Below are positions 3,834-59,913 of a stretch of 64,000 nt of DNA, one piece after another. The DNA is taken from NCBI GenBank assembly GCA_014905635.1, contig JABVCE010000024.1, positions 372,001-436,000 of the forward strand, in the 5' to 3' direction. This DNA comes from Scenedesmus sp. PABB004 (taxonomy: Eukaryota). Both the position numbers and the translations under genes were made by a program. The notes beneath the pieces were generated by a model that was not told the DNA's origin, did no database searches, and worked only from the letters and a program-made list of their open reading frames with translations. Positions within the stretch are counted from its first letter, which is position 1. Every line of letters begins with the position of its first letter.

Positions 3834-5323
<1,490 letters not shown>

Positions 5324-5611
5324 GCGCGGCGCGCCCCGGCGGCGTGTTTTAAGACCTGAGCCCTGACCTGAGCCCTGACCGACTGCGCCGTGTAGCGCCT
5401 ATAGTCGCAGCCGTGGCACAACAGTGGAACTGCCGTCTGCGCCGCGCGCCGCCGCCCGCACAGCAGCCGCCGCGCCGCCTCTCGCCTCGCCGCACGCACG
5501 GCTCGAACCTGATCCAGCCTGCACGGACAGCAGCACCCGCCGGATTTCCACCCGCTCGCCGCGCAGCCGGCGCACGCACGGTCTGGGCTGCAGCGGCGGC
5601 GGCGATGAGCG

Positions 5612-8600: not shown

Positions 8601-8764
8601 ACAAGGCCTCCGCGCTGCGCCTGCACCCCGACCGCCACGTGACCGCCGACGCCGCGGCGCAGCGCCGCGCGGCGGAGCGCTTCCGGCGCCTGCAGCTCGC
8701 GTACGAGACGCTGCGCGACGCGGAGCGCCGCCGTGCGTACGACCAGGGGCGCCTGGTGCAGTAG
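5612..8764 (+). CDS. DnaJ-type protein with C-terminal J domain and probable transmembrane segments (multi-exon)
   Basis: Last exons read DFLGYYKALGI...IKAAYKASALRLHPDRH...AAERFRRLQLAYETLRDAERRRAYD, with the HPD motif intact. There is a hydrophobic stretch at ~7450-7610. The N-terminus MLPAAALLPARQ...LLARRGCASE resembles a mitochondrial presequence; the start is inferred. Confidence 0.78.
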
Positions 8765-16418: not shown

Positions 16419-17562
16419 GGCGCGCCTCACGCCGCGAGGCGCGGGCTGGCGGGGCGGCTGGCCGGCCTGCTGGCGCGCCGCCGCAGTACGGGCAGCGGCG
16501 CGCTGCGAGCGGCGGGCTGCAGGCGCGCCCTTCGGCAGCCGGAGCGTTGTGAAACTGCGCGATGCGGGCTCGGGTGCAATGCTGGAGGCGCGCAGACGCC
16601 GGAGCGCGATGGGGAGGGGAGGGCAGCGGTCTCGCCGCCCGCCTGCCTTCTCGTCGTCCTGCGCCCGTCCCAGCGCGCCTGCTCGCCCGAACGACTGGGA
16701 CGATCTCCTCGTCGGCTAGGGCGCTCGTAATCCCCGGACGGCCGCCCTCAATTCGCGCGGTCTGTTACCTGGACTGCTGCCGAGAGGCGGGCAACAGGGG
16801 CTCATCCCAACAGCAGAGGGCTGTCGTCCGCGCGGCGGGCACGCCGCCGCCGCGCGTCTTGCAGCCCGGCGCGGCGCTCGAGCCTGGCGCGCAGCGCCTG
16901 CGCCCCAGCCATCATCATCCCCCCGCCCGGACACCACCGGCACAGCCCGTCAGAGCCTCGGCAGCCGGTGTGTGCGCCAGGGAGCAGAGGGCCCCCCGAA
17001 GCGGATGCGGGCGCGCCGGGGCCCCCAGGAGGGCGCGGCGGCCGGGGAGAGGCCGCCGGCCGCCGACCGCCTGCGCTGGCGGCGCGGCCGCGGCCGCCGC
17101 CGATGCCGACGGCGGCCGCGGCGGGCCTGCCGTCCCGGCGCGCGCTGCTGGCGACGAAGACCGCCGGTGCGGGGCCGGCCGCAGCAGGCCCGGGCCGCCC
17201 GCGCTGGCCTGCAACATGCACATTAGTTCAGGCAACATCGCGAGGATGGAAACCCCCCAGCCAGCCGAGCCAAAGCACCTATGCACGGTCCTGCGCCCCA
17301 CTCCTGGCAACTCTCAAGGCCGGCGCCCGCCCGCAGCGCCAAGGCGGCGCGCACGCGTGCGTTCAGTGCGGCGCAAACCACCCGCACCGGCCGGCCGCGG
17401 CTGCGGCCGGCGCGGCGGGGTCCGAGCTCGGCGCCCCAGCGCAGCGGCGGGCGAGCGGCCGGAGCGGCGCAGCTGCTGCTGCGCCCGCCCCGGCGCGGCG
17501 GGCGGGCCCGCGCTGGGCGCCGCCGCTGCCGCGCCGCCGCCGCCGCCGCGCCAGGCGGCGCC

Positions 17563-40800: not shown

Positions 40801-41320
40801 CCCGCGGAGCTGGAGCAGCTGGTGTGCGGCGGGCGGGTCGTGGACCTGGCCGCCCTCGAGGCGGCCACACACTACGACGACGGCTACGACGCGTCCAGCG
40901 CGCCCGTGCGCTGGTTCTGGGAGGTGCGCGCGCGCCGGCCGGCCGCTGGGGCGCCGGCTGCACGGGCGCGGCACGGCGGTTTGTCGCGCTCCTGCGTGTG
41001 GGCCCCGCGCGCTGCGGCGCCCACCGCTCACGCCCGCGCGCGCGCCGCGCGCTGCGCCGCAGGAGGTGCACGCGCTGGACGGCGCGGCGCAGAAGCGGCT
41101 GCTTTTTTTCATCACCGGCAGCGACCGCGTGCCCATCAAGGGCCTTGGCCACCTCAGCCCTCCGTTTGTCATCTCGCGCAACGGCGCCGACGGCGCGCGC
41201 CTGCCGACCGCGCACACGTGCTTCAACCACCTGCTGCTGCCCGCGTACGCCGACCGCGACACGCTGCGCTCGCGGCTGCTGACGGCGCTGGACAACGCGG
41301 AGGGCTTCGGCCTGCTCTGA
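36531..41320 (+). CDS. HECT-domain E3 ubiquitin ligase (multi-exon)
   Basis: Spliced motifs [78 protein letters not shown] and [14 protein letters not shown] (catalytic Cys), ending EGFGLL*. Confidence 0.93.
39357..39410. repeat. Interstitial telomere-like TTTAGGG tract in a HECT intron
   Basis: agggtttagggg...gttagggtttaggtgtttagggtgtagggtgtagg directly after the donor at ~39352. Confidence 0.75.
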
Positions 41321-42013
41321 CAGGGGCGGCGCGCCGCGTGGGCGTGCGCGCGTGGAGCCACGTGCTGCGGCGCAGCAGGCCGGGCGGCGGCGCACACGCA
41401 GCGTGGCGGGCAGCGGCTGGCGCCCCCCGCGGCGGCTGCCACGGCCGGGCGTGGCGAGCGCGCGCGGCACGCTGGCGGCGCGTGGTGGTGCGCGGGCTGC
41501 ATCGTGAGCGCTCGCTCGCGCTGGTGACAGGCAGCGTTGGACCGAGTTCTGCCGCCCGTGCGAGGGGGCCGGGAGGTCAGCGGCTGGGTGGTGCTCAGCA
41601 AGTCAGGGGCGCCGCCGCGCGAGCGCGCAAGAAAAATGACCGCCGCCTTGCGCCGCTGGCGCGGACGCCGCTGGGTGGCGCGGCCCGTGCGACTCCGGGG
41701 CGTCGTGGTGAGGCCCTGGAGCTGTTGACGGGCCCATCAAACCCAGGGGGTGGCCTGGCAGGGCTTGAGCTCGCTTAGGGCTTCACTCCGGCTTCAGAAA
41801 AAGGGGGTGAACCACGACGATATGCCCGTTACATTCGGCGCGGTCGCCGGAACGCAACACCTTGGCGTCCAATCGCGCGCCCGCGCGCGACGACACGCAG
41901 CCCACAGGCCAGGCCAGGCGCCCGGTCCGGCTCTAGGGTCAGCCCTCCTCCCACGCGCGCGCGCAGCTCACGCGACGCCTGATCAGCCGCTCACGACGAC
42001 GGCTCGTACGACT

Positions 42014-45000
42014 ATGGTGCGGCCCCACGGGCGCGCGGCCTGGCTGGACCGGGCAGCGCAGTTTTCGCGGGCGAGGATTCGCCATCCCCTGCCCCGCCGA
42101 GCGGGGCGCCCTGGCGCCGGGAGCCCGCGCGCGCGTGCCCCACGTGACTGCACACTGCGCCCCTGCCGCCTGACACCCCGCGCTCCGACGGCTGACCCGC
42201 CCCACCCGCCGCCCGCGCGCTGCTCGCCCACCGACAGGCCGCCGCGCCGCGCCGCCTGCTGGTCTGCCTGGCGCTGCTGGCGTGGTGTGCGACAGCCGCC
42301 ACGTCGCGGGACGTCGCCGTCGCCGTCGACGGAGGCACACACCGCAGGCCCACGCGCACGCTGCGCCAGGGCCGGCCCGCCGCGCCACGACAGGCCGTGC
42401 CCGACATCTGCGGCGCGACTGGGCAGGACGCCGGCTCCGACACCACCACGCGCTGCGCGCAGCGCTGTCAGGTCTGCGTCAACGACCGCACCATCGCAAC
42501 CCGCAACCGCACCTGCCTCTGCTGCAAGGCGGGCTTCGTGCCCAACCGCGAGGAGCCCGGGCGCTGCCGGCCGTGCGCGCCCAGCACGTTCAGCCCGACG
42601 CCCGGGCGCGCGCGCTGCATGCTCTGCCGCGGCGCATTCACCACCCTGCGCAATGGCGCCACAAGCTGTGACGGTGAGCGCGGGCGCTGCGCCGGTGCTG
42701 CGGGACAGAGCCGCTGCCGCGCTGCGCCGCCTGACGCACCCTGACGCCCCACTTCCCTCCTCGTCGCTCGCCGCAAACGCTCGCAGCCTGCGCGCCCGGT
42801 TACGGAGGTGAAGCGTGTGTGCAGTGTGCTGCCGACACCTACTCACCCGGCGGCTGGCCAAACGAAACGGCCTGCCTCGCTTGCCCCCCTGGCACGAGCA
42901 CGAGCGCCCTGCCCGGCGCGACGTCGCTGGTCGGCTGCCTCCCCGGTGCGGGGCGTGAGGGCGGTGGCGCTCCTGCCGGGCTGCTGCATGGCGCGCCCAA
43001 CCACATCGCTGACATGCACGAGCCGTACGCGCCCTCATTGTCCCGCAGTGAACACCACCAATCAGGAGTTGCCCGCGCCAGCCAGCCCGTCGCCCGCGCC
43101 GCTGGCCCTCAGCAGCCCCAGCCCCGCCTCTGCGCCAAGCCCTGCGCCGAGCCCTGCGCCGAGCCCTGCGCCAAGCCCTGCGCCGAGCCCTGCGCCAAGC
43201 CCTGCGCCAAGCCCTGCGCCAAGCCTCAGCCCCAGCCCCAGCCCCAGCCCCAGCTCTGCGCCAACCCCTGCGCCAACCCCTGCGCCAACCCCTGCGCCAA
43301 CCCCTACGCCCGTGCCAGGCGGCGGCGGTGGCTCGTTGGTCCAAGCCTGTGGCGCCTTCAACTGCACCAGCGGCGTGCCCCGGTCCAGTGACACCGTCGG
43401 GAGCTCCGAGGCCGCCTGTTGCGTGAGTGGGCCGGCGCGGGTTGCCCGAGGGCACGCCGCGGTGCAGCATGGCCACAGGGGGCCTCGGTCACTCTGCTAG
43501 AGCTGCGTTCACGCAGCCGCCCACCGCTGCCGTCGCTGCACACCTCACAACCACCCCAGAGCACGTGCGCCAACCCCGTCACGGCGATCACTTGTGTTGC
43601 TGGGCAGTCGCTGCCGTCGACTCCTGTGGCCCTGCCGGCGGGCATTGGGCCCTCCGCTGCTCGGTGCTGCGTGAGTTGCCACGGGCCTTTAGCGCTCGCC
43701 GCTTTCATGCAAAGCACACCCTAAATGTCAGCGCGAACGCCAGTGAGCGCCACGCGCTGCGCCGCCGGCGCGCCTGCAGGTCTTTTCTGTTGCCGTCGCC
43801 ACATGCAACAGCACGGGCGCTGGAGCGCCGTCGTACGACTGCGCCAACTCGACGCTGCCGCTCCCCAACGCGCTCTACGCGCCGGCCAGCATCAGCGGCC
43901 TCACGCCGGCGGCCGCAGAGGCCGTGTGCTGCACGGTGCGCGTGCCGCCGACGGCACCGAGCCGCGCCGAGCAGGCGCCGCCTGTTGGCAGCCAGGCTCG
44001 CTGACACCCGGGCTCGCTGGCTGTTGCATGCGCTGCTGCATTTGCAGCGCCACGCAATCCACGCCTCCGCCCGCGCCGCCCGCAGGCGCACCCTGCTGGC
44101 GCGACCTGCATCGACATCGACGGCGCGGGCGCAGGACAGGTCGCGCTCAACTGTGCGTGGTGCAGCGCAGTCGAGGGCACTGGCCGCCTGCGCAGCGGCG
44201 GGGCGGGCACCGCCGCGTGCAGCGTGCGGACCTCGCAGAGCTTTGCTGCTCTGCTCCGCCCTGCGCTGATCGCTGTCCCGCGCGCTCCTGCATGCACTCA
44301 TGCGCAGGCACGGGCGCGGGCTGGGTCAACGGGGGCGCCAGCACCAGCATCGCGGGGCAGACGCCCAGCCAAGCGCGGGCCACGTGCTGCACGGTGAGAT
44401 GCGCGCGCGTGGGCGGAGGCCAGAGCAGCACGCTGCTGGCGGCGCGCGCGCTCGGTGCCTGCCAGGCGCGCGGTCTGCAGGCGCGCCGCGTGCTCGCCGC
44501 CTGCGACCGCACCTGCCCATCAACCTGCTGCTGCCCGCCGCAGGTCTACGCGGCCGGGGCAACGTGTGGCGGCACGACCGGCAGCTCGCCCGCGCTGCCG
44601 TTCAACTGCTCAGGCAGCAGCCAACCGTTCCCCAACGCGCTCTACGCGCCGGCCAACATCACCGGCCTCACGCTGGCGGCCGCAGAGGCGGTCTGCTGCA
44701 AGGTGCGCCGCCCGCCGGCGGCAACGCGCCGGCCTTGGGCGCTGCGCTTGCCGACGCCGCTGCGCTCTGCTTCCCCGCCGTCAGGCGTACCCTGCGGGCG
44801 CGACGTGCGGCGACAACGACGGCAGCCTGACGGCAGCCACGCAGTCGCTGTCATGTGAGTTTGGCGCTGGGCAGCAGGTGCCGCCGCGGGGGGGGGGGGG
44901 GGGGGCATGCGCGCTCTGCAGCGCTGCGCGCACGCCCGCCGGGCCCGCCGGGCCCGGCGCGTGCGGGCTGCTGAGCGGCGCCGGTGGTGCGAAACTCGGG

Positions 45001-46317
45001 GGAGGGGGAGGCGGGCACTCACGGGCTCTGCTGCTGCTGCACTCATGCCGCGCAGGCGGCAACTTGGTCGCGGCCGCCAACGCCACCAACACCACCATTG
45101 CCGGGCTCAGCGCCACAGAGGCCGCAGCCGCCTGCTGCACCACCGCGCCGGCAGTCGCGTTACCGGTTCCGGCCGTTGCTGCAGGCACCGGATACACATG
45201 CGCGTTGCTGAACGACACCTCGGTGCGCTGCTTTGGCAGCAACGAGTATGGCCAGCTTGGCGATGGCACCAACACAACCAGACCCGCGCCCGTGCGCGTC
45301 ACGTGGCCGGGCGGCACGCCGCTGACCGGCGTGGTGAGCATTGTCGCCGGCCCCTCTCACGCCTGCGCGACGCTGGCAAATGGCACGGCGGCGTGCTGGG
45401 GTCGCAACTTTATCGGCCAGCTGGGCGGCAACTCTGCGTCTTTCAGCCAGCCCAACCCCGTCGCCGTCTTGCTTGGCGGCGCGCCGATGACCGGCGTGGC
45501 GAGCATCGCCGCTGGCGCGTATCACACCTGCGCGCGGTTGGTCAACGGCACGGCGCTTTGCTGGGGCACGAATGGGAACGGGCAGCTCGGAGACAACACC
45601 ACAGCCTCCCGTTTTAGCCCTGCGGCCGTCACGCTTGGGGGTGTGCCGCTGACCGGCGTGGCTGAGATCGTTGCTGGCTTTCAGCACACCTGCGTGCGGC
45701 TGGACAACGGCACCGCAGTGTGCTGGGGCTTCAACGGGAGCGGCCAGCTTGGCGAAGGCACCAACACCACCAGCCGGCCGAGCCCCGTGGCCGTCACGTG
45801 GCCGGGCGGCGCGCCGCTGACCGGCGTGGCCCAGATCGCCGCTGGTCAGTATCACACCTGCGCGACGCTGGCCAACGGCACGGCGGTTTGTTGGGGCGAT
45901 AACGCTTCTGGCGCGCTGGGCGACGGCACCAGCGGAGCCCTTGGCGTCAACAACAACCGGCTCAACCCCGTGGCCGTTTCAAACCTCACCGGCGTGGCGC
46001 TCGTCGCTGCGGGGCTGCGGTCCACCTGCGCCATTGCCGGTGGTGAGGTGGCGTGCTTTGGGAGCAACTACTACAGCCAGCTGGGCACAACCGTCAACGC
46101 CGGCACCGGCAACAACCTCACCCCGCTGAAGGTGCTGGGCCAGGACCCCACCAGTTACCCCGCGGTGGGCGTCGCTGTTGGGGACGCCCATGCGTGCATC
46201 TGGCTTGGGGGCAACTTGGTTGTGTGCTTCGGACAGAACAACTATGGCCAGCTGGGCCGCACCTATACCGACACCTCTACCTCACTCTACGCCGGGGTCC
46301 TCGTGAGCTTTGCTTGA
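42014..46317 (+). CDS. Secreted modular protein, copy A: signal peptide, TNFR/GCC2-like Cys-rich region, Ser/Pro-rich (HRGP-like) stalk, six 4-Cys modules, 7-blade RCC1/BLIP-II propeller
   Basis: ATG|GT micro-exon spliced to 42238 gives MAAAPRRLLVCLALLAWCATAA. Then CKAGFVP...CRPCAPSTFSP and CAADTYSPGG...CLACPPGTST, (APSP)n, exon-coded ..CCT modules, and a terminal exon 45056-46317 with 7 RCC1 repeats. Confidence 0.85.
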
Positions 46318-47249
46318 CGCTCTCGGCGCGCAAGGCATGGCGGAGGCAGCATCACACCAACCCTTGATGGTCAAGGGGGTGCTGTTTGTCTGGCCAGGGC
46401 CAGGGGGTTGCACTCCCTCCACTCTCTTGCCGCGCACCATGTGGTGTGCTGCGGCAACCCCGCAGCGTGTGAGAGGAGCGCGCATGCGCGTGGGCAGGGC
46501 GGCGCAGCACACGAGGGGGGGGGGGGGGCTTCGCTTTTGCCTGCAGGGAAGCAGCAGTTGGTGGGGTCGGCTCTCGTTGCTACGCCTTGAACGGCCTCCC
46601 CTCACCGCGCCGCTCTCTTTCCTGCTCCTGCGGGTTGCCGGACCAAACTTGACTTGACTAGACTTCCAGGGTTTGCCGTGTGCGAGTACGTTGGGCTCAA
46701 CAACATATGCGTGTGCGCAACCTAGTTTGTGTTGTGTTGTGATCAAAATCAAACGGCCTGTTCGATCACGGCCAATTCAGCTTTGAGCAATCAGTTATCG
46801 CCTCTGCTTCAATCACTGCTGTTTGCCACAGGGCGGCTCGGCACCCAACGGCCACGCACGGGCTTAGCAGCACTTCCTGAACGTGCTGACTTGCGCGCGC
46901 GCGCGTGGCTGCTGCTGCCGACGCTCGACAGCGCAGGGGCGCCGGCTGACCAGCTGTCAGCGCCGGCCAGAGCAGGCGAGCGGCCGCGCGCGGTGGGCGG
47001 CTGCCAGCGCGCGTTGGGCGCGCGGCGGCTGGCGCGACCAGGCGTGGGCGCTGCGGCAAGCCTGGCGCTGGCGGCGTGCATCGTGGTGTGAGTGCGTCCG
47101 CTTGGTGCCTGGTCAACTGGGACTCGCTGTGTGGCGGTTGCTCGTAAGACTGTGCACCTGGCCGCTCTCACCCAGCCCGGCCTCGCCACCCGCGCGATGC
47201 AGCCCCAGGCCACCACAAAACACAGTTTGCCGCCGCTGCCCGCTGCTGC

Positions 47250-47435
47250 TGCTGGTCTGCGGATCACGCGCGCGCGCGCGCAATTGCCCTCAGCCACCGG
47301 CGGGCGGCGAGCCCTCGCGGCCCGCCGGCGGCTCACCATCGTCAGCGGCGGCTCATCGTCCGCGGAGGTGGTGGCAAGCGCCGGGTGGCCGGCGTAAAAT
47401 GCTCACCGCCACGCCGCTGGACTGTGGTGGCTCGC
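47250..47435 (-). pseudogene. Decayed duplicate of the last codons of the CUB-TM-RING gene
   Basis: The reverse complement encodes EPPQSSG-VAVSI, matching EPPQSSGRVAVSIY at ~55440-55480, with indels downstream. Confidence 0.75.
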
Positions 47436-47460
47436 ACCGGCCGCCCACGCTGTGCCGCAG

Positions 47461-48358
47461 ATTGAGAGCGAGGCCGGCTTTGGCGAGCGCGTGGCGGTGG
47501 ACCTCGCGCCCGGCGGCGCGGCGCTCGCGGTCGGCCGCGGCAACGTCGCCGACTACGTCGCCGCGTACACGCAGCACCTGCTGGTCGGCAGCGTGGCGCG
47601 CCAGTTCGACGCCTTCCAGCGCGGCTTCCTGCGCCTCTGCAGCGGCGCGGCGCTGCAGTTTTTCAGGCGTGCGCGCGCGAGCCCGCCGCCTCGCGGTGGA
47701 CTGCCACCACCGCCCGCTCGGCCTGCGGGCCGCCGCCCGCCCGTGCCGCGCCGCCGCCCGCTCGCGGCTCACGGGCGTGGCCGCCGCCGGGCATGCCTGC
47801 GCCCCGCCCGCGCGCGCGCCAGGCCCGCGGAGCTGGAGCAGCTGGTGTGCGGCGGGCGGGTCGTGGACCTGGCCGCCCTCGAGGCGGCCACACACTACGA
47901 CGACGGCTACGACGCGTCCAGCGCGCCCGTGCGCTGGTTCTGGGAGGTGCGCGCGCGCCGGCCGGCCGCTGGGGCGCACGCTGCGGGGACGCGCGGGGGC
48001 CGTCTCGCGCGCGCGCGCTCCGGCGCGCGGGCCCCGCGCGCTGCGGCGCCCACCGCTTACGCCCGCGCGCGCGCCGCGCGCGCCGCGCGCTGCGCCGCAG
48101 GAGGTGCACGCGCTGGACGGCGCGGCGCGGAAGCGGCTGCTTTTTTTCATCACCGGCAGCGACCGCGTCCCGATCAAGGGCCTTGGCCACCTCAGCCCTC
48201 CGTTTGTCATCTCGCGCAACGGCGCCGACGGCGCGCGCCTGCCGACCGCGCACACGTGCTTCAACCACCTGCTGCTGCCCGCGTACGCCGACCGCGACAC
48301 GCTGCGCTCGCGGCTGCTGACGGCGCTGGACAACGCGGAGGGCTTCGGCCTGCTCTGA
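47461..48358 (+). pseudogene. Partial duplicate of the last three HECT exons (C-lobe)
   Basis: Exons near-identical to 40349-41320 ([10 protein letters not shown]..., [10 protein letters not shown]..., LPTAHTCFN...GFGLL*). No upstream HECT exons and no convincing start. Confidence 0.88.
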
Positions 48359-49007
48359 CAGGGGCGGCGCGCCGCGTGGGCGTGCGCGCGCTCGGCGCGG
48401 CAGGCGGCGGCGCACGTAGCGTGGCTGGCGTCGCCGCGGCGGCTGTCGCGGCCGGGCGCGGCGATCGCGCGCGCAGCACGCTGGGGCGCGTGGTGGTGCG
48501 CGCGCTGCATCGTGAGCGCCCGCTCACGCTGGTGACAGGCAGCGTTGGACCGAGTTCTGCCGCCCGTGCGAGGGGGCCAAATGGTCAGCGGCGACGCGGG
48601 GCTCGGTGGCGAGACAGGGCGCCGCGGCAGCGCGCAAGAAAGTGACCGCCGCCGCGGACGCCGCGGCGGGTGGCGCGGCCCGTGCGACTCCGGAGCGTCG
48701 TGGTGAGGCCCTGGAGCTATCACCGCGACCAGCAGCAGCCCAGGGTGTGGCCTGAGCTGTGCGCGGCGTGCCTAGGGCTTCACTCCGGCTTCAGAAAAAG
48801 AGGGTGAACCACGACGAAATGCCGGTCATATTCTTCGCAGTCGCCGGAACGCAACACCTTGGCGTCCAATCGCGCGCCCGCGCGCGACGACACGCGGCCT
48901 AGAGGACCAGCGCGCCCGGTCCGGCTCTAGGGTCAGCCCTCCTCCCACGCGCGCGCGCAGCCCACGCGGCGCTTGATCAGCCGCTCACGACGACGGCTCG
49001 TACGACG

Positions 49008-52000
49008 ATGGTGCGGCCCCACGGGCGCGCGGCCTGGCTGGACCGGGCAGCGCAGTTTTCGCGGGCGAGGATTCGCCATCCCCTGCCCCGCCGAGCGGGG
49101 CGCCCTGGCGCCGGGAGCCCGCGCGCGCGTGCCCCACGTGACTGCACACTGCGCCCCTGCCGCCTGACACCCCGCGCTCCGACGGCTGACCCGCCCCACC
49201 CGCCGCCCGCGCGCTGCTCGCCCACCGACAGGCCGCCGCGCCGCGCCGCCTGCTGGTCTGCCTGGCGCTGCTGGCGTGGTGTGCGACAGCCGCCACGTCG
49301 CGGGACGTCGCCGTCGCCGTCGACGGAGGCACACACCGCAGGCCCACGCGCACGCTGCGCCAGGGCCGGCCCGCCGCGCCACGACAGGCCGTGCCCGACA
49401 TCTGCGGCGCGACTGGGCAGGACGCCGGCTCCGACACCACCACGCGCTGCGCGCAGCGCTGTCAGGTCTGCGTCAACGACCGCACCATCGCAACCCGCAA
49501 CCGCACCTGCCTCTGCTGCAAGGCGGGCTTCGTGCCCAACCGCGAGGAGCCCGGGCGCTGCCGGCCGTGCGCGCCCAGCACGTTCAGCCCGACGCCCGGG
49601 CGCGCGCGCTGCATGCTCTGCCGCGGCGCATTCACCACCCTGCGCAATGGCGCCACAAGCTGTGACGGTGAGCGCGGGCGCTGCGCCGGTGCTGCGGGAC
49701 AGAGCCGCTGCCGCGCTGCGCCGCCTGACGCACCCTGACGCCCCACTTCCCTCCTCGTCGCTCGCCGCAAACGCTCGCAGCCTGCGCGCCCGGTTACGGA
49801 GGTGAAGCGTGTGTGCAGTGTGCTGCCGACACCTACTCACCCGGCGGCTGGCCAAACGAAACGGCCTGCCTCGCTTGCCCCCCTGGCACGAGCACGGCCA
49901 CCCTGCCCGGCGCGACGTCGCTGGCCGGCTGCCTCCCCGGTGCGGGGCGTGAGGGCGGCGGCGCTCCTGCCGGGCTGCTGCATGGCGCGCCCAACCGCAT
50001 CGCTGACATGCACGTGCCGTACGCGCCCTCATTGTCCCGCAGTGAACACCACCAATCAGGAGTTGCCCTTGCCCGCGCCAGCCAGCCCGTCGCCCGCGCC
50101 GCTGGCTCTCAGCAGCCCCAGCCCCAGCCCCAGCCCCGCCCCTACGCCAAGCCCTGAGCCAAGCCCTGCACCAAGCCCTGAGCCAAGCCCTAAGCCAAGC
50201 CCCAGCCCCAGCCCCAGCCCTGCGCCAACAACCCCTGAGCCCTTGCCCGGCGGCGGTGGTGGCTCGTTTGTCTCGACCTGTGGCACCTTCACCTGCACCA
50301 GCGGTTTGCCCCGGTCCAGCAACACCGTGGGGAGCTCCGAGGCCGCCTGTTGCGTGAGTGGGTCGGGGCATGTTTTGCAAGGTCGCGCGCGCGGTGCAGC
50401 ATGGGCGCAGGGCCCCGGTCGCCCTGTTCCAGCTGTGCTCACGCAGCCGCGCACCGCCGCCGTCGCTGCACTCCTCACAACCACCGCAGAGCACGTGCGC
50501 CAACCCCGCCGCGGCGATCACCTGTCCTGCTGGGCTGCAGCTGCCGTCGATTCCGGTGGCCCTGCCGGCAGGCATCGGGCCTTCCGCTGCTCGGTGCTGC
50601 GTGAGTTGCCGCGGGCCTCAGCGCTCGCAGTTTGGGTGCAAAGCGCCCCTAGATGTCAGCGCGCACGCCAACGAGCGCAACGCGCTGCGCCGCCGACGCG
50701 CCTGCAGGTCTTTTCTGCTGCCGTCCCCACATGCGGCATCACGGGCGCTGGAGCGCCGTCGTACGACTGCGCCAACTCGACGCTGCCGCTCCCCAACGCG
50801 CTCTACGCGCCGGCCAGCATCAGCGGCCTCACGCCGGCGGCTGCGGAGGCCGTGTGTTGCACGGTGCGCTGCCGGTGGCACGGAGCCGTCCCGAGCAGGC
50901 GCCGCCCGTTTGCATCCGGACCCGTTGGCTGTCGCGTGGTGCTGCAAGCGCAGCGCCAGCTGACCCACCCACCACCTCCGCCCCTGCAGGCGCACCCTGC
51001 TGGCGCGACCTGCATTGACATTGACGGCGCGGGCGCAGGACAGGTCGCGCTCAACTGTGAGTAACGCAGCGCAGTGGGGGCACTCTGGCCGCCTGCGCAG
51101 CGCAGCGGCGGGGCACCGCAGCGTGCGGCCATGCGGACGACGCAGAGCTTTGCTGCTCTGCTCCGCCAGACGCTGACCGCGGTGCCCTCACACGCTCCCT
51201 GCACTCTATGCGCAGGCACGGGCACGGGCCGGGTCAACGCAGGCTCCAGCACCAGCATCGCGGGGCAGACGCCCGGCCAAGCGCGGGCAACGTGCTGCAC
51301 GGTGAGAGGCGCGCGCGCGGGCGGAGGCCTTCCGCAGCGCTGCACGCTGCTGGCGGCGCGCTCGCGGTGCCTGCCAGGCGCGCGATCTGCAGGCTTGCCG
51401 CGTGCTTGCTGCACACGACCGCGCCTGCACGTCAACATGCTGCTGCCCGCCGCAGGTCTACGCGGCCGGCGCAACATGTGGCAGCACGACCGGCAGCTCG
51501 CCCGCGCTGCCGTTCGACTGCTCCGGCACCAGCCTGGCGTTCCCCAACGCGCTCTACGCGCCGGCCAACATCAGCGGCCTCACGCCGACGGCCGCGGAGG
51601 CGGTCTGCTGCAAGGTGCGCCGCCCGTCGGCGGCAACAAGCCGGCCTTGGGCGCTGCGCTTGCTGACGCCGCTGCGCTCTGCTTCCCTACCGCCAGGCGT
51701 ACCCCGCAGGCGCGACGTGCGCCGACGGTGATGGCAGCCTGACGGCAGCCGCGCAGCTGCTGTCATGTGAGTTTGGCGCTGGGCAGCAGGTGCCGCCGCG
51801 GGGGGCAATCCGCCTGCGCGCTCTGCAGCGCTGCGCGCACACCTGGCGGCCCGCCGGGCCTGGCGCGTGCGGGCTGCTGAGCGGCGCTGGTGATGGGCAG
51901 ACGGATAATGTGCTCATGAAAAGCGGGAGGCGGGCACTCACCGGCTCTGCTGCTGCTCCCATGCCGCGCAGGCGGGAACTTGGTCGCAACCGCCAACGCC

Positions 52001-53221
52001 ACCAACACCACCATTGCCGGGCTCAGCGCCGCCGAGGCCACAGCCGCCTGCTGTACCACCGCGCCGGCGGTCGCGATACCGGTCGCGGCCGTCGCTGCAG
52101 GCGCGGGATACACATGCGCGTTGCTGAACGATACCTCGGTGCGCTGCTTTGGGGTCAACGACGTGGGCCAGCTAGGCGACGGCACCACCACCAGCCGGCC
52201 GAGCCCCGTGGCCGTCACGTGGCCGGGCGGCGCGCCGCTGACCGGCGTGGCCCAGATCGCCGCTGGTCAGTATCACACCTGCGCGATGCTGGCCAACGGC
52301 ACGGCGGCGTGTTGGGGCGTCAACTGGTACGGCGAGTTGGGCGACGGCACCTCCACCACCAGTGGCCACCCTATGCTTGTTAGGCTGACACAGGGCGGCG
52401 CGCCGCTGACCGGCGTGGCCCAGATCGCCGCTGGTCAGTATCACACCTGCGCAAAGCTGGACAACGGCACCGCGGCGTGCTGGGGCCGGAACGCTTACGG
52501 CGAGCTTGGCGACGGCGCCAGCTCAACCGTAACGGAACGGCGGAGCCCTGGGACGGTCACGCAATCGCTGGGCGGTGCGCCGCTGACAGGCGTGGCAGGC
52601 ATCACCGCTGGTGAGTTTCACACATGCGCGACGCTCAACAACGGCACGGCGGCCTGCTGGGGCGCCAACAACAAAGGCCAGCTGGGCGACGGCACCGTCG
52701 CCGATAGCGATGTGCCCGTGGCCGTCACGTGGCCGGGCGGCGCGCCGCTGACCAACGTGGCCCAGATCGCCGCTGGTCAGTATCACACCTGCGCGACGCT
52801 GGCCAACGGCACGGCGGCGTGCTGGGGCTGGAACGCTTATGGCCAGCTAGGCGACGGCACCAGCGGCACCAACCGGCTCAGCCCCATGGCTGTTGCAAAT
52901 CTGACGGGTGTGACGCTCATCACTGCTGGGTCGCAGTCCACCTGCGTCCTTGCAAGCGGTGAGGTAGCCTGCTTTGGGGTCAATTCCTACGGCCAGCTGG
53001 GCGTCGGCGTCAACGCCGGCAACGCCAATGCAAACCGCACCCCGCTGATGGTGCCGGGCTTGAACGGCACGGCGGGCATCACGGCCGGGGATGTCCACAC
53101 GTGCGCCTGGTGGACGGGCGGCGCCGCGGTGTGCTTCGGGTCCAATGCCTATGGGCAGCTGGGCCGGGGCACCGTCAACGCAACAGCCAACCCCACGCCT
53201 GAGGCTGTGCGCTTTGCTTGA
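49008..53221 (+). CDS. Secreted modular RCC1-propeller protein, copy B (same architecture as copy A)
   Basis: Same exon series at an offset of ~6994 nt. Terminal exon 51972-53221 has 7 RCC1 repeats and ends ANPTPEAVRFA*. Confidence 0.85.
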
Positions 53222-53618
53222 CGCTGGGCGCGCCAAAACGTCTGCGCCGCGAAGGCCGAACCTCTCAGTGTTGGGGGGCCTCGGTCTGACTTGCCAGCAT
53301 CTCTGCAGTGCGAGGGGTGCGCTCTTGCCCGCCGCGACTCGGCTCGCCGCGCGTGCTGCATCAACCACTCACTCTACTTGTGTGTCACGCGCGGCGCGCA
53401 TTGCGCGCAAGGCAGGATCGAGCATGGTGTGATGCTCAAACCATCAAGGGTGTGCAGATTGGTGGGCCAGGGGGTTTCACTCTCTCCACTCTCTTGCTGC
53501 GCCGCACGTGGTGCCGTGTTTGCTGCGTCGACCCCTCAGCGTGTGTGACACAAGCGCGCATGCGTGTGGGCAGGGCGGTGCATCAGACCAGGGCGGGGGG
53601 ACAATGGGCGGGGGCTTC

Positions 53619-54628
53619 ACCTGGTCTGGCGGCGCGCCGCTGACCGGCGTGGCGAGCATCACCGCTGGCGGATATCACGCCTGCGCGACGCTGGTCAATG
53701 GCACGGCCGTGTTCTGGGGCTCGAATGCTGTCGGCCAGCTGGGCGACGGCAGCGCCACACTATTCAGACCCGCGCCCGTGCCCGTCACATGGCCTGGCGG
53801 CGCACCGCTGACCGGCGTGGCAAGCATCGCCGCCGGCTTCCTTCACACCTGCGCGCGGCTGGACAACGGCACGGCGGCGTGCTGGGGCAACAACGACGTC
53901 TACGGTCAGCTTGGCGACGGCACCCGCATCAGCAAGTATAACCCCGTGGCCGTCACGCAATCGCTGGGCGGCGCGCCGCTGACTGGCGTGGCCGAGCTCG
54001 TTGCCGGGAGTTATCACACGTGCGCGCGGTTGGTCAACGGCACGGCCGCGTGTTGGGGCTACAATGGGAACGGCCAGCGTGGCGACGGCACCGGCGGCCC
54101 CAACAATGACAGCCCCGTGCCCGTGCCCGTCACGTGGCCGGGCGGCGCGCCGCTGACCGGCGTGGCGAGCATCATCGCTGGCTGGTATCACACCTGCGCG
54201 CGGTTGGTCAACGGCACGGCCGCGTGTTGGGGTGAAAACCTGAATGGCCAGCTGGGCGACAGCAGCGCAGGCGACCAGCTCAACCCCGTGGCCGTTTCCA
54301 ACCTCACCGGCGTGACACTCATCGCTGCGGGGCTGCGCTCCACCTGCGCCGTCATTGCCGGTGGCGAGGTGGCGTGCTTTGGAGACAACTCCTGGGGCCA
54401 GCTGGGCACAATCGTCAACGCCGGCACCGACACTCCGAATCGCACCCCGCTGAAGATTCCGGGCCTGACCGGGGCAGCGGGTGTCGCTGTCGGGGATCTC
54501 CACGCATGCATCTGGTTGCCGGGTGACGTGGTCGGGTGTTTGGAAGCAACGACAAGGGCCAGCTGGGCCGGAACTCTACCAACAATACGTCCATAAACCC
54601 CTCCCCGGCCCCCGTGAGCTTTGCGTGA
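53619..54628 (+). pseudogene. Truncated RCC1 cassette (blades 2-7) with a frameshift, copy C
   Basis: Begins abruptly at TWSGGAPLTGVASI after a copy of the family 3'UTR and has 6 repeats. There is a C-to-F change in AVFWG. A 1-nt deletion at ~54540 hides CFGSNDKGQLGRNSTNNTSINPSPAPVSFA* (TGA 54626-54628). Confidence 0.8.
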
Positions 54629-55334
54629 CGCTCTCGGCGCGCACGGCAGGGTGGTGCATCGCACCATCAAGGGTGTGCTGTTTGTTTGGCCAGGGGCAGG
54701 GCGGCTTCTCACTCCCTCCACTCTCTTGCCGCGCGGCGTGTGGTGTCGTGTGTGCAGCGCATCATCAAACCCTCAGCGTGTGCGACGAGCGCGCATGCGC
54801 GCGGGCAGGGCGGCGCATCACGCCGAGGGACCTGGGGGGCAATGGTGATCATAATCAAACGGCCTGTGCGGTCACGGCCAATTCAGCTTTGCCTTGAGCA
54901 ATCAGTTATCGCCTCTGCTTCAATCACTGCTGTTTGCCACAGGGCGGCCCAGCACCCGTGGGCCACGCACGGGCTTCGCAGCACTTCCTGAACGTGCTGA
55001 CTTGCGCGCGCGTGGCTGCTGCTGCCGACGCTCGACAGCGCAGGGGCGACGGCCTGCTGGGCCGACTTTGACTGCCGGTCAGAGAGGGCGCGCGCGGCGG
55101 CTGGCGCGGCCAGGCGTGGGCGCTGTCGGCAGGCCAGGCGCTGGCGGCCCGCGGCGCGGTGTGCGCGCATCCGCTCGGTGCCTGGTAAAACTGGACTCGC
55201 TGTGTGCCGGTTGCCCGTTTTACTGCCGCTCGCACCCAGCCCGACCTCGCCACCCGCGCTCGTTCGCAGCCCCACACCTCCACAAAACATAGCTTGCCTG
55301 CCGCTGCCCGCTGCTGCTGCTGCCGGTCCGCTGA

Positions 55335-58300
55335 TCACGCACGCGCGCGCAGGTCCCCTCCGCCGCTGGCGCGAGGCGCGCCCTCGCTCGCCGGGAGCTC
55401 ATCGTCGTCGTCGGTGGCAGGGTGGCCGGCGTACGCATAAATGCTCACCGCCACGCGGCCGCTGGACTGTGGCGGCTCGGGGCTCGTGCGCCCGACGGCC
55501 AGCCCGGCTGCCGGCGCGGGCGCGTCGCCCCCGCCGTCAATGCCGCCGCCGCCGCCGCCGCTGGACGCGCGCAGCATGCCGTGCAGGCGCCGCCCCAGCT
55601 CTCGGCCAGAGTCGCGGATGGCCGACACGCCCGCCTGAGCCGCGCCCAGCGCGCCGCCGAGCGGGCCCGCCGGCGGGCTGGCGGGCCCCGCGCTGCCGGG
55701 GTCCGCGCCCGCGATCGCGGCGACCGCCGGCTGCTGCTGCGCTGCCGCGAGCGCGGCCGCTGCGGCGGCAGCGGCGGCAGCAAAGTCCGCCGGCACCGCG
55801 TGCACCGTGCCCGCCTGCAGCGCGCCAAGCGAGGGGGCGCGAGACATGCGCCCCTGCTGCTCCGCGCCACCGCCACCGCCGACTGGCGCCGCGCCGCCGC
55901 CGTCCTTGGGGCTGAGGGCCGCGCCTGCGGCACCGCTCGGCAGGGCCAGCGGCGGCAGCCGTCCCTGCCACTGATGCGCCGCAGGGCTCGGCAGCTGTGC
56001 GACCGCCGCCACAGCGTCTCCGTGCAGCGCCGCGCTGGTGCTGCGACCGCCGAGCGAGCTCACCGCAGGCAGCTCGATCTCTGAGGCTGCCCACACGCCA
56101 GCCGCCGCGCCGCCCAGGGCCGCCGCGGCGCCCGGGGTGCCTGGCTGACTGCTGCTGCTGCGTTCGCTGCTGCTGCTGGTGTGGCCCGCTCCGCTGCCGC
56201 TGCTGCTGCCGCTGCTGCTGCCCGCGTCCGCGCCCTGCTCGCCGCCGCCGCCGCCGCCGCCGCTGCCGGGTGCGTGCGCCACAGCGCGCCGCTGGCTGCG
56301 GCGCCGGCGGCGCGACGCCGGCTGCTGGCCTGCGCCCTGCGCGCCGCCGGCAAACGCGCGCAGCACGTTGGCCTTGCACAGCGGGCAGGTGCAGTTTCGG
56401 CTGAGCCACGAGTCGATGCACTCGCGGTGATAAAAGTGCATGCACGGCAGCACCGTCACGCTCTCCCCCGGCTCCAGCTCGACCAGGCAGATGGCGCAGC
56501 AGTCCGCCTCCGTCGCCGCGCCGGGCAGCGGGTTGTCGGCCGGCGGCGGCTGGTACGGCTTGCTCGGCAGCAGCGCGCGCACGCCCGACGGCACGCGCGG
56601 GATGGCGGCGCCCTGCGCGGCGCCGCCGCTGCCGCCCTCGGCAACGAGCACCACCTGCGCCGGGCGGGGCGGGGCCGCGGCGAGGCAGCGGGCCGGTGGG
56701 GCCACAGGGCCGCGCCGCAGCACGGCGGCCGCTGCCAGCGTCGCCCGCCCCGCGCGTCCTCCGCCAGCCCCCCCCCCCCCCCCCCCCGCACGCCGCCCCG
56801 CGCGCCGCCGCCGCCGCCAGCTCACCCCGCGCCGCCGACGCGCGCAGCAGACGCAGAAGAGGCACAGCGCCGCGAGCGCCGCCGCGGCCGCGCTCACGCA
56901 GGAGAGCGCCACGACCATGACGCGCGCGCGCGGCGGCCCGCGCGGCGCGGGGCCCGCGCTCGTCCAGGCGACGGAGAAGTCGCCGACCGCGGCCGTGCTC
57001 GTGCGCGTGGTCTCAAACTCCACAAACACCGAGCGCTCGACCCAGAGCCGCGCGCTGAACACGCCGCCCGCGCCGGGCGACGCGGGGCGGCGCAGCTGCA
57101 CCACGTTGTTTGGCCCCAGGTGCAGCGTGAGCGCCTCGTCGGGCAGCAGACCAGCGTAGCTCACCGTGAGCGTCACTTCGGGGTAGTCGGGCTGCAGCTC
57201 CCAGCGGCAGAAGAAGCCTGCGCGGCGGCGGCGGCGGCGCGCGGCGTGGGCGGCGGCGCGCGGCGGCGCACCGCGCGCGGCGTAGGCGGCGGCGCGAGCG
57301 CGGTGCGGCCGTGCACACACGGGCGGGCCGCGCGGCGCGGCGCGCCCACCGCGCGGGTGGTAGATCGCGCGCCGGTCCGGCTCCAGCGCGGATAGGTTGG
57401 AGGGGAACGCGCCGCCCTCGCCGCGCACGTCCTCGACCTCGCCCGTGCACAGCAGCTGCGGCGCGGCGACGAGCTGGCGCGTCTGCGGCGCCGCCGCGGC
57501 GCCGCGCGCGAGCAGGCCCGGGTCGGCGGGGTCGAACGCGACCGGCAGGCTCGCGAGCTGCGTGTCGCCGACGCTCATGTTGGCGACGAACTCAAACGAC
57601 CTGCGTGTTCGCGTGCGTGCGTGTGTTGTGTGTGAGTGTGTGGACGGGGGGCTGCCGCGCGGGCACGGCGCCGGCGGCGACGCCGGCGGCGCGCCAGCGC
57701 GGGCGCAGCGCACAGCGCAGCGCGCACAGCGCGCGCGGCGCACCCCGGGACGACAAAGAACGGCGCCAGGCCTGCGTCGCCGGTCCACTGCATGTCCCAG
57801 ATCAGCCCGGGGCTGCTCTTGGTCCAGACCACGATCTGCGCCGGCGGCGGCGGCGGCGCGGGCGCGACGGGCTCGCGGGGCGGGGCCGCCAGCCGCGCAC
57901 GGCTGCCAGCCGAGCGCGCCGCGCCGGCCGGCCCCGCTCGCCGCTGCCGCCCGTGCCGCGCCGCTGCGCACCTGCGCGCCCACGATCTGCGCGTGCATCT
58001 GCACGGGCGCGCTGCCGCGGCGCTGGGGGTAGCGGCTGCCCGCCCACGCGAGCGAGCCAAATGACGCCTCCAGCTCCAGCAGGCCCAGCTCGACGCGCAG
58101 CGCCGCCTCAATCGTGCCCCCGCCGCGCAGCACGAAGCTGCCCGACGCGAGCGGCAGCGCCGCCGCGCCGTCGCGCTCTGTTCCGGCATGGGCGGCGCGG
58201 CGCGCGCGGGTGGTGCGGCCGGCCGGCGGGCGCGGCGCGGCGCCGCCGCTGCTCCTCCCCGCTCCTCCCGCGCCCTCCCGCGCCCTCCGCGCACCCGGCG

Positions 58301-59320
58301 TGTCGAAGAGCGACACTGTATAGGCCACGCCCTCTCGCAGGCCGCCGCAGAGCACGACCTGGTCGCGGTACACCAGCCCGCTGCCGCCGTCGCAGCGGCC
58401 GCCGTACTTGACGGACTCGTCCTTCACGTCGACGTAGAACGAGCGCGGCGGCAGCGGCAGGCGCAGCGCCTCGCCGCCGCCGGCGCCGAGCGGCGCAAAG
58501 GCCACGGAGAGCGCGAGCGACGCGCTGCCGCGGCCGCCCGGCGGGTTGTAGAAGCGCACGCTGCCCTCGCCGCCGCCGCTGCTGTCGCCGCCGCTGCGCC
58601 TCCCGCCGCCGCCGCTGCGCCCGCTCCCGCCGCCGCCGCCGCCGCGCCCGTTACCGCCGCTCCCCCCGCCGCCGGCGTCGGCGTCGAGCGTCGGCGTGGA
58701 GAACGGGTCGAGCAGCATCGGCCCGAGCGCCTGCAGCACCGCGTCGCCCGCCGTCGGGTCGCCGGGCGAGGCGTCGCCCCAGGGCCCCGCCAGGCGCGCC
58801 GCCGCCGCGAGCGCGCGGCCGAGCAGGCCGTCCAGGCCGGGCGCCGCCTGCTGCAGCAGCGACCGCGCCGGCGGCGGCCGCCGATCGCCCGCCGCGCGGC
58901 CGCCGCCCGCGCCGCCGCGGCCCTGGCCGTAGCGCGTCGGCCTCCAGGCGCTGGGCGGGCCCGCGCCGGCGCTGCCGTCCAGGCGGGCGCCTGCGGGCGG
59001 CAGCAGCGGCCGGCGCGGGCGGCCCGGCCTCGGCGCGGCGTCCGGGGGCGCAGGCGCGCGGGCGACGCGATCCCCCGAGCGCCACGGGCCCGCGGCGGCC
59101 GTCACGGACGACGCGCGGGCGCCCGCGGCGCGGGGCGAGCACGCCGAAGCCCTGTACTGTCGACCCGCCGGCCGTGCGCCCCGCCGCCCCCCGCGCCCCC
59201 GGCACGCGCAGGCTCACCTTCCAACTCCCGGGCCGGCCGCGCCGCGCCGGCGCAGGCCGCCAGCGCTGCGAGGGCGAGCAGCAGCGCGGCGCAGCGACGC
59301 CGCCGCCCGGGGGGCGCCAT
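55335..59320 (-). CDS. Type I membrane RING-H2 E3 ligase with a luminal CUB-like domain
   Basis: Signal peptide MAPPGRRRRCAALLLALAALAACAGA. CUB-like segment CTGEV...FCRWELQP...VTLTV...VFVEFET...GDFSVAW. TM segment VMVVALSCVSAAAAALAALCLFCVCC followed by RRRR. RING-H2 CAICLVELEPGESVTVLPCMHFYHRECIDSWLSRNCTCPLC. Confidence 0.85.
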
Positions 59321-59913
59321 GGCTGCTTCGCTGGCCTCGATCTACGCGACCCGCATGCCGGCGACCGCGCTGGCGGCTGGCGCGAGAAGCTGTTTCCGAG
59401 TCGAGAGGCTGGGCCGCACCAGGCGGCTGGCTGGGAGGGTCTGGATGTGGAGGGCCCCGTCTTGCAGGTGTGGGCACGCGGGCGGGGCGGTCGGGCGTGC
59501 GGCCGGCCCGGGAGCGGCGGTCAAAGAGGTTCAGCGAAGCCCAGGCTGGCCCCCCGGCACCCGCACGCCCTGCCCTGCCGGGAGCGGGCGGTGGAGACCG
59601 ATCCAATTGCCAGGGACAGCGCAGGCGCCGCGCACACGCTGCCCACGCGGCACCCCGCCACCCGCACTACAAGCAACTGGGCCGGAGCAGCTCCGCCCGT
59701 TGGGCGCCAGCGGTTCGGGGCGCGCCGTTGGGCCACGCAAGACCGCGCCTCGCCGCCCGCCCGCGCGCCCGGCCCGCCGGGGCGCGGCGGCGACCGCGGC
59801 GGCGCAAACAGCGGCGGCGCGCGAGCAGCGGCGCGCCCGGGCCGCGCGCATGGCCGGCCCCGCGCCGCGCGGCGGCGGCCCCGGCCCGACGACAGCCGAC
59901 TGACCCAGCCACC

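Follow-up and report, generated by a model that had tools for sequence, protein, structure and literature searches.

Out-of-register blade exchange among the RCC1 propeller genes of a tandem locus in the green alga Scenedesmus sp. PABB004

The 64,000-nucleotide (nt) stretch of contig JABVCE010000024.1 considered here (the window) comes from the nuclear genome of the green alga Scenedesmus sp. PABB004 and contains four blocks encoding RCC1-type propellers. Two blocks are the last exons of the tandem paralogues A (45056-46317) and B (51972-53221), a third is a partial copy, C (53609-54628), that adjoins B, and the fourth is an exon of gene D (20-1413), oriented on the negative strand, with A, B and C on the positive strand. 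Blades of these propellers have been transferred out of register, both within and between genes. The reading favoured here, with some reservation, is that this exchange represents ordinary concerted evolution of the repeats of a secreted binding protein, and not a selected generator of diversity.

Transfer of blades within and between genes

Pfam RCC1 domains are found in all four blocks (WD40_RLD E-values of 6.9e-46 to 3.8e-75), as an earlier note on this DNA had read them from the sequence, and the positions given there coincide with exact exon limits: 45056 and 51972 follow CAG acceptors, 1413 to 20 runs from an acceptor to a GTGAGC donor, and 54628 is the stop of C in a shifted frame. The count of exactly seven blades made there for three intact copies holds for A, B and D, and seven blades are present in all five complete propellers examined.

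The longest shared tract joins A and B. The tail of blade 4 and the head of blade 5 in A (45762-45886) differ by one mismatch in about 125 nt from the tail of blade 1 and the head of blade 2 in B (52183-52307), three blades out of register. Within this tract 101 nt match exactly, starting at 45765 in A and 52186 in B, in agreement with the block of about 100 nt that the earlier note had placed at these two junctions; the 74-nt block quoted there is exact at 45767 and 52188. Over 120 nt the A4/A5 and B1/B2 junctions are identical at 117 positions, including the rare codons GCT, GGT and TAT. Parts of the block recur in B, also as claimed. At the B2/B3 junction the head of blade B3, which encodes the residues QY, is exact over 60 nt (52393-52452) with B at 52225 and with A at 45804, with 7 mismatches in 94 nt, and the B4/B5 junction is identical to the tract at 109 of 120 positions. 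The head of B5, the in-register counterpart of the A5 head, is exact over 62 nt (52756-52817) with A at 45825. Exchange within a gene is seen in D, where blades D3 and D4 (659-988, negative strand) are near-duplicates in one propeller, with 92% DNA identity overall and 97% in their tails, and where blade 4 of the second, off-window propeller (E4) has 98% protein identity to D3.

The tail of B1 is 90% identical to the tail of A4 versus 78% to that of A1, and the head of B2 is 96% identical to that of A5; this difference in the nearest relatives of blade heads and tails supports conversion. A GENECONV-like test was applied to 15 two-blade segments with 222 polymorphic sites and 1000 column permutations. 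The A4A5-B1B2 pair shares a run of 67 consecutive polymorphic sites, against a maximum of 42 in the 1000 permutations, and none of them (0/1000) attained the run of 45 such sites seen for D3-D4. Four further segment pairs have a global p of 0.003, some of them counting the same event twice because the segments overlap. Exact matches of at least 28 nt between propeller exons number 23, two of which are in register between paralogues. The longest tract that copy C has in common with the other propellers is the 40-nt linker.

The relationships of whole blades lead to the same result. In the identity matrix, blades 1, 5, 6 and 7 pair by position and blades 2 to 4 do not, the central blades being mostly 61-80% identical at the DNA level (about 70%). 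In a maximum-likelihood tree of 26 blades, positions 1, 6 and 7 form clades (support 100/99, 99/98 and 91/71), whereas D2 to D4 cluster within their gene and B2 and B3 fall together with A5 and B5. By the approximately unbiased (AU) test, a positional clade is rejected for positions 3 (p 0.0003) and 4 (p 0.0025), is borderline for position 2 (0.0985) and is not rejected for position 5 (0.44). Strict clustering of blades by position, which the earlier note had named as evidence against its proposal, is thus absent at positions 3 and 4 but does hold at positions 1, 6 and 7. With the tract permutation test, the tree and the mismatched heads and tails in agreement, the out-of-register conversion that the note had proposed is well founded, and the use of the conserved linker DNA as homology for the exchange is plausible. 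The transfers in B left three similar heads, with QY in B2, B3 and B5, which is homogenisation. According to a published survey, RCC1/BLIP-II propellers make up 10% of highly repetitive propellers, and blade amplification and local duplication are described as common among them.

The variable face of the propeller and its evolution

An AlphaFold2 model of the B propeller, built from a 38-row alignment, has 28 strands, a predicted local distance difference test score (pLDDT) of 95.7 and a predicted template modelling score (pTM) of 0.93. The features of an RCC1-like domain are all present, with matches to PF00415, PF13540 and PF25390 and seven repeats of about 50-60 amino acids (aa) in a closed propeller of four-stranded blades; individual blades measure 50-59 aa. 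In a Foldseek search the model matches UVR8 first (template modelling score, TM, 0.85-0.90; 29% identity), followed by HERC, RPGR and RCC1 domains. Profile E-values are 2e-81 for UVR8, 3e-18 for BLIP-II and 1.4e-15 for ACR4, and the sequence match to UVR8 has an E-value of 2.3e-36. A Cys pair, C-x8/9-C[WF]G, is found in 26 of the 27 blades in the window, the exception being C2, which has Phe in place of the second Cys, suggesting one disulfide per blade.

By sequence, the closest relatives among the 120 best hits are secreted RCC1-repeat proteins of bacteria and archaea (COG5184; RCC1, RCC1_2, WD40_RLD): 119 hits are prokaryotic or metagenomic, with 34-48% identity, and the sole eukaryotic one is the paralogue P0010, with 67%. 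These prokaryotic proteins share with the algal blades the motif AG-xx-HTC..CWG-x-N-xx-GQLGDGT and the same variable columns. The algal genes differ from them in their introns, (Ser-Pro)n spacer, NGT sequons and lineage-specific Cys modules, and the algal propeller has differentiated first and last blades. The nearest relatives of the propeller exon of A and B are prokaryotic, and the exon may have been acquired from bacteria.

UVR8 is the best solved-structure match of the B model, but Trp-Arg at the position of the UVR8 motif GWRH occurs in none of the 27 blades in the window; the pairs found there are PS, AY, FQ, QY, EF, GY, FL, SY, WY, DS, EA, GA and others. UVR8 is also a soluble nucleo-cytosolic protein, while the algal proteins have a hydrophobic leader, 58 Cys, 17-23 sequons, an Ephrin_rec_like repeat and a Pro-rich spacer, features that point to secretion. 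BLIP-II of Streptomyces exfoliatus, a secreted seven-blade RCC1-like propeller with a fold match of TMt 0.76, binds its protein target through loops of one face. It differs from the algal propellers in its short blades (273 aa in all), in the lower fold match when scored over the query (TMq 0.54) and, as published, in having no blade disulfides. CRINKLY4/ACR4 (PDB 7a0j), a receptor-kinase ectodomain of land plants, is described as an extracellular seven-blade RCC1/BLIP-II-like propeller of the green lineage, combined with a TNFR-like Cys-rich domain; its seven 'crinkly' repeats are reported to carry a Cys pair in the motif C(X~10)CWG, which forms one disulfide per blade in the crystal structure, and a comparable pair is present in the algal blades (26/27). 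The CRINKLY4 repeats are only about 39 aa long, whereas the algal blades, at 50-59 aa, are much nearer to UVR8 and HERC; moreover, the algal Cys-rich repeats are N-terminal, in contrast to the CRINKLY4 domain that follows its propeller, and A and B have neither a transmembrane helix nor a kinase, their stop directly following blade 7.

Column variation was measured on 16 central blades. Seven columns have an entropy of at least 2.3, namely the first x of AG-xx-H, the x that follows CWG, both positions behind the N, a pair of columns after GDG and one at the start of strand 4, so that variation is concentrated at AG-xx-H, CWG-x-N-x-x and the loop after GDG, as the earlier note had observed. When mapped on the B model as suggested there, all seven lie in the strand 1-2 turn, in the strand 3-4 loop or at the end of that loop. 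Since loops alternate in an antiparallel sheet, the strand 1-2 turn and the strand 3-4 loop are predicted to share one face, with the NGT turn (the NGT sequon is a feature of the central blades and is found in 18 of 40 blades) and the WPGGAPLT linker on the other. The most variable columns are accordingly placed by the model in loops of one face, and the propeller is most likely a ligand-binding head, the putative binding face being formed by the AG-xx-H turns and the CWG-x-N-xx..GDG.. loops. Aromatic residues are common at the variable columns. AG-xx-H aligns with G-W-R-H of UVR8 (W233, W285, W337) and CWG-x with W94 and W250 (columns 8 and 26), and published work on UVR8 locates the Trp residues aligned to these two columns at the dimer interface. 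These columns are also variable in bacterial relatives with blade identities of 74-76%, which indicates that the pattern of variability belongs to the repeat class.

Selection was measured among paralogues only, by Nei-Gojobori counts with a binomial check, at five face columns in positionally matched blades. The ratio of nonsynonymous to synonymous divergence (dN/dS) is 1.17 at the face columns, which were picked for their variability, so that this value is biased upward, and 0.46-0.58 outside them. For single pairs, the face-column ratio is 1.9 between A and B (25 changes) and 2.1 between A and C (14 changes). The share of replacements at these columns is not above the neutral expectation (one-sided p 0.36-0.45). 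A ratio well below 1, which the earlier note would have counted against its own proposal, is therefore not observed, but neither is the ratio significantly above neutral.

That note had proposed that the exchange diversifies a binding surface, and a selected variable recognition system of this kind, in which out-of-register conversion, possibly with C as a silent donor, shuffles face residues for self/non-self recognition, adhesion or defence in parallel to the hnwd genes of Podospora, has several observations in its favour. Exchange does occur within and between loci, the tract that was transferred includes QY, which are face residues, the variable columns share one face and are often aromatic, their dN/dS is not below 1, the heads have stayed divergent while the stalks were homogenised, and a promoterless partial copy adjoins B; precedents are reported in the WD repeats of hnwd and in PKN, a brown-algal gamete factor with a propeller and a mucin-like spacer. 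It is nevertheless unlikely. Selection for diversification finds no significant support, the p values of 0.36-0.45 having been obtained on columns chosen for variability and the bacterial relatives varying alike, and the known transfers made B2, B3 and B5 more similar to each other. The fixed number of seven blades, blade identities near 70% in place of near-identical repeats, a family of only five genes and the fact that C shares at most the 40-nt linker with other copies likewise count against a dedicated diversifying system. What stands of the claim is the exchange itself, the Pro-rich stalk and the variability of one face.

Several observations weigh against the preferred interpretation of ordinary concerted evolution in a secreted binding protein. 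Outside the face columns, a dN/dS of 0.46-0.58 exceeds what a constrained protein would lead one to expect and is also compatible with relaxed constraint, and the ratio of about 1.2 at the face columns (1.9 for A-B and 2.1 for A-C, on 14-25 changes) leaves room for positive selection. The A and B propellers are far more different than the rest of the two genes despite active conversion next to them, which could reflect selection against homogenisation of the heads. In addition, the five family accessions appear in none of the papers covered by a full-text search. Neither a UVR8/RCC1 entry nor any of the five accessions occurs in the text or one supplement of a wall proteome paper on Scenedesmus obliquus.

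Of the known cases in which propeller repeats are shuffled, the hnwd family of Podospora anserina (het-d, het-e, het-r) is the closest. As in the algal family, its propeller repeats are reported to be exchanged within and between paralogues, and its variable residues to lie on the interaction face. The published account gives ten members with a highly variable number of repeats and positive selection at four positions; the algal family always has seven blades (5/5 complete propellers), with about 70% identity and few tracts, and so differs from hnwd in both repeat number and repeat likeness. The hnwd products are also described as intracellular proteins of the STAND class (signal transduction ATPases with numerous domains), whereas the algal proteins are read as secreted. 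PKN, the gamete recognition factor (bioRxiv 10.64898/2026.02.20.706836), resembles the algal family in the layout given in the preprint, with a signal peptide, a seven-blade propeller and a Ser/Thr/Pro-rich glycosylated spacer, and its fast-evolving loops are reported on the distal face. It is a membrane protein of an unrelated lineage, and the likeness noted here is one of layout; it is credited in the preprint with positive selection across 17 species, whereas the counts for the PABB004 family are not significantly above neutral. As reported, PKN demonstrates that propeller heads on mucin-like spacers can act in recognition. The broader idea that the stalked RCC1 surface proteins form a recognition repertoire for colony contact, gametes or microbes, with blade cassettes copied between expressed genes and partial copies such as C and the stalk kept uniform by in-register conversion, is speculative and distinctly improbable; if true, it would represent an extracellular algal counterpart of the fungal hnwd repeat shuffling.

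Gene structure, stalk architecture and public annotation

Gene models were constructed with the paralogue P0010 as a guide and by direct reading of the DNA, and rest on sequence alone. Gene A (42014-46317), which corresponds to NCBI P0124 although the model there differs, is predicted to have 11 exons and to encode 960 aa (exons 42014-16, 42238-42673, 42787-42945, 43049-43422, 43560-43670, 43780-43935, 44086-44152, 44308-44393, 44544-44702, 44785-44854 and 45056-46317). All ten introns are GT..AG and the frame is open throughout. Gene B (49008-53221), its tandem paralogue, likewise has 11 predicted exons, encoding 935 aa (49008-10, 49232-49667, 49781-49939, 50043-50353, 50490-50600, 50708-50863, 50990-51056, 51216-51301, 51456-51614, 51697-51766 and 51972-53221). 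Each splice site of A has a canonical counterpart in B, with all B introns GT..AG; the exon lengths are equal or differ by a multiple of three in 11 of 11 cases, while five of the seven length differences between diverged introns are not multiples of three. A and B thus read as intact 11-exon genes. In both, the start ATG is the end of a 3-nt coding exon followed by a 221-nt intron (ATG|GTGCGG ... CAG|GCC), identical in the two genes (42014-42237 and 49008-49231).

Exon 3 of A encodes a Cys-rich ephrin-receptor-like repeat (PF07699, 26.2 bits against a cutoff of 23.1), a segment that the NCBI model of A skips but that is present in the paralogue P0126 after ..SCD. Exon 4 contains a 12-nt repeat array (43130-43310) encoding (Ser/Ala/Thr-Pro)n, followed by the first Cys module, and is 63 nt (21 codons) longer in A than in B. 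The stalk resembling hydroxyproline-rich glycoproteins (HRGPs) that the earlier note had proposed is accordingly real coding sequence (43049-43422). Exon 11 encodes the last Cys module and the seven-blade propeller, with a Pfam match in both genes (blades at 45163-46314 in A and 52079-53218 in B). The propeller and last module occupy a single intron-less exon of about 1.25 kb, the other exons of A and B measuring 3-436 nt. Intron 10 of gene A has a run of 18 G at 44888-44905.

Copy C consists of the tail of a blade-1 linker followed by blades 2 to 7, with no upstream exons, and the loss of one nucleotide in a T run near 54536 shifts its frame; it is a promoterless six-blade partial duplicate lacking blade 1. 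C was also considered as an alternative last exon of B and rejected, as exon 10 has a phase-1 end and the single acceptor upstream of C would keep the frame only with a phase-0 junction. Gene D is NCBI P0127, a protein of 1228 aa with two propellers; the exon in the window carries the first (seven blades, 1324 to 191, then a Cys module), and the gene runs off the window with the second propeller outside it. The propellers of A, B and C end in ..V(S/R)FA-stop (46304-46317, 53207-53221 and 54614-54628), where Val-Ser/Arg is encoded by GTGAGC or GTGCGC, sequences that are also the two most frequent donor motifs in these genes. At the corresponding propeller end, gene D reads through (..VRFD) into further modules and its second propeller. 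An optional splice may exist at the propeller ends of A, B and C.

The A and B proteins comprise, in order, a hydrophobic leader, a Cys-rich region, the ephrin-receptor-like repeat, (Ser/Ala/Thr)-Pro repeats, six Cys modules and the propeller. The Cys-rich repeats resemble those of ephrin receptors and of TNFR. The Pro-repeat stretch of exon 4 is about 75 residues long in both. The six short Cys modules end in CC(T) and belong to no Pfam family. Each protein has 58 Cys, with 23 and 17 N-x-S/T sequons, respectively. The leader resembles a signal peptide, suggesting that both proteins are secreted, and a stretch of Ser-Pro/X-Pro repeats in a protein so read would class them as HRGP-like. If this is correct, the proteins would join an HRGP-type spacer to new Cys modules and to a disulfide-bearing RCC1 head, and the range of extracellular RCC1-type propellers, which includes BLIP-II, CRINKLY4 and surface proteins of prokaryotes, would come to include a chlorophyte. 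Neither this family nor, in green algae, an extracellular RCC1 propeller on an HRGP-type stalk is described in the papers reached by full-text literature searches, which did not extend to the supplements of bioRxiv preprints.

Counted from protein databases, the family consists of five genes: A, B (with C), D, P0010 and the divergent P0126. The N-terminal exon of A and B is 100% identical to two PABB004 proteins, and a search with it gave four hits, all from PABB004, among 5,609 scored candidates. A search with the Cys-module region gave five hits, one of them a weak match to a Tetradesmus protein, and an exhaustive phmmer search of 1.84 billion representatives with one 53-aa Cys module gave seven, four of them from PABB004. 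The other three phmmer hits (a gammaproteobacterium, a tick and an ENA record) share no domains and are probably spurious. Protein Atlas offered no lead on the Cys-module region (best feature score 0.88, TM at most 0.31). The family appears restricted to the lineage of Scenedesmus sp. PABB004, matches in other genomes being weak (Tetradesmus obliquus) or probably spurious. The Tetradesmus obliquus protein P0128 (1263 aa) is built of comparable ..PxxATCxDxDG.. / ..CCT Cys modules together with Cys-rich repeats; it lacks an RCC1 domain and matches no Pfam entry at E of at most 0.001. Since the modules occur there without RCC1, those of the stalk may be older than their joining to the propeller.

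NCBI names four of the five family members UVR8, which is the transfer of a best-hit name and not a statement of function. Two of the public models are probably chimeras (46300-48355 and 53207-55068). The model P0124, named UBE3A, leaves out exons 3 and 5 of A as well as part of exon 4, and then splices, ten bases before the stop of A, into the HECT fragment of the next duplication unit. The 3' two-thirds of this HECT domain (profile positions 116-305 of 306) are present twice, at 40220-41775 and 47398-48355, and the duplication breakpoint at 40342 falls within the HECT gene, which makes the copy lying between A and B a probable dead fragment. A HERC/HECT ligase combines an RCC1-like domain with a complete HECT domain in a single polypeptide; here the HECT domain is partial and lies beyond the stop codon of A.

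The model P0125, named UVR8, splices B into C and then uses an extra intron to bypass the frameshift of C. That B and C are indeed a single gene, with a donor ten bases before the stop of B joined to an acceptor at 53574 to give a two-propeller protein like D in which C is coding, is quite unlikely. The intron concerned (53207-53573) does run from a GTGCGC donor to a CAG acceptor without loss of frame, gene D truly has two propellers within one protein, and a donor-like GTG[AC]GC motif is also found at the ends of A and C. The splice would, however, delete the last strand of the B propeller and lead into a copy without blade 1 and without the modules that precede every other propeller, whose frameshift must be bypassed by one more intron. 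The sister model P0124 joins A by the same device to a HECT fragment lacking profile positions 1-115, which suggests an artefact of gene finding. If the reading favoured here holds, the five PABB004 proteins named UVR8 or UBE3A would be secreted stalk-and-propeller glycoproteins and not photoreceptors or ubiquitin ligases, and two public gene models would probably be chimeric.

History and surroundings of the locus

A and B belong to a tandem segmental duplication. Unit 1 (40342-47453) comprises the 3' part of the HECT gene, gene A and its flank, and unit 2 spans 47454-55479. An 889-bp block comprising exons 1 and 2, introns 1 and 2 and most of exon 3 is identical between the genes (42014-42902 and 49008-49896), whereas identity inside the propeller is 56-82% per 100-nt bin, in accordance with the earlier remark that the copies are nearly identical in their 5' parts yet differ strongly in the propeller. 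The region after C matches the 3' flank of A, and the spacer between B and C contains a copy of positions 46397-46524 of that flank, which marks C as the positional counterpart of the last exon of A; the last exon of B with its piece of flank reads as a local duplicate. The one duplication junction that could be placed (about 53600-53609) joins 3' flank to linker without homology.

Synonymous divergence (dS) between A and B is 0 in exons 2 and 3, 0.17 in exons 4 to 10 and 0.46 in the propeller, intron divergence ranges from 0 to 0.22, and the overall dN/dS is 0.5-0.6. As synonymous divergence rises with replacement divergence, the parts of the genes have different histories, and selection on amino acids alone does not account for the contrast. 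The stalk of A and B appears to have been homogenised recently, with older and mosaic heads. In the course of events proposed here, duplication would have produced the 7-kb tandem unit, the partial last-exon copy C and the second propeller of D, in-register non-allelic gene conversion would keep the 5' stalk of A and B identical, and out-of-register conversion among blades 2 to 5 would make mosaic blades. Closure of the ring would hold the count of seven, along with blades 1, 6 and 7, fixed. The encoded product would be a secreted, disulfide-rich, N-glycosylated wall or surface glycoprotein with a C-terminal ligand-binding propeller head, its glycan sites and conserved WPGGAPLT linkers on the face opposite the contact face. 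If this holds, the locus would offer a clean, dated case of in-register conversion, out-of-register mosaic blades and ring-closure constraint side by side.

It is highly improbable that the identical tracts of 101 nt and 889 bp arose through errors of assembly or through short-read polishing of a tandem repeat. Such an origin would fit their perfect identity within paralogues that have otherwise diverged and lie about 6.4-7 kb apart, and the frameshift in the T run of C could be a sequencing error. Against it, mosaic relations are also found at lower identity and at the scale of whole blades, where polishing would not act (D3/D4 at 92%, E4/D3 at 98% aa, the B3 head with 7 mismatches in 94 nt), and the tree and AU tests are independent of the exact tracts.

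The G+C content of the window is 69-82%; a comparative paper gives the PABB004 genome as 39.8 Mb with 78.5% G+C and 7,092 genes. A domain scan covered 125 of the 143 stop-to-stop frames of at least 230 aa, the 18 omitted being 15 over the RCC1 genes and three others. Neighbouring frames encode a uracil phosphoribosyltransferase (UPRTase, 3255-5349), DnaJ (7937-8761), a short-chain dehydrogenase (15522-16715), an FAE1-type synthase/type III polyketide synthase (19081-19821), HECT, a RING finger (55338-59213) and a leucine-rich repeat protein (58933-61104). These are ordinary nuclear genes with no obvious tie to the propeller family.

A scan of metagenome contigs with the N-terminal exon found no relative, and one with blades 5 to 7 found 349, the 80 retained having 37-52% identity and including no sister-strain locus. 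A freshwater metagenome DNA run, which contains a fraction of 0.05 of the sequence words, yields 60 short contigs that are 85-99% alike to the locus (40300-54800), some of which join A-unit to B-unit positions, such as 41635 to 48643. These contigs are from a related organism and do not represent strain variation at the PABB004 locus; the related alga probably has a single or differently arranged copy of it.

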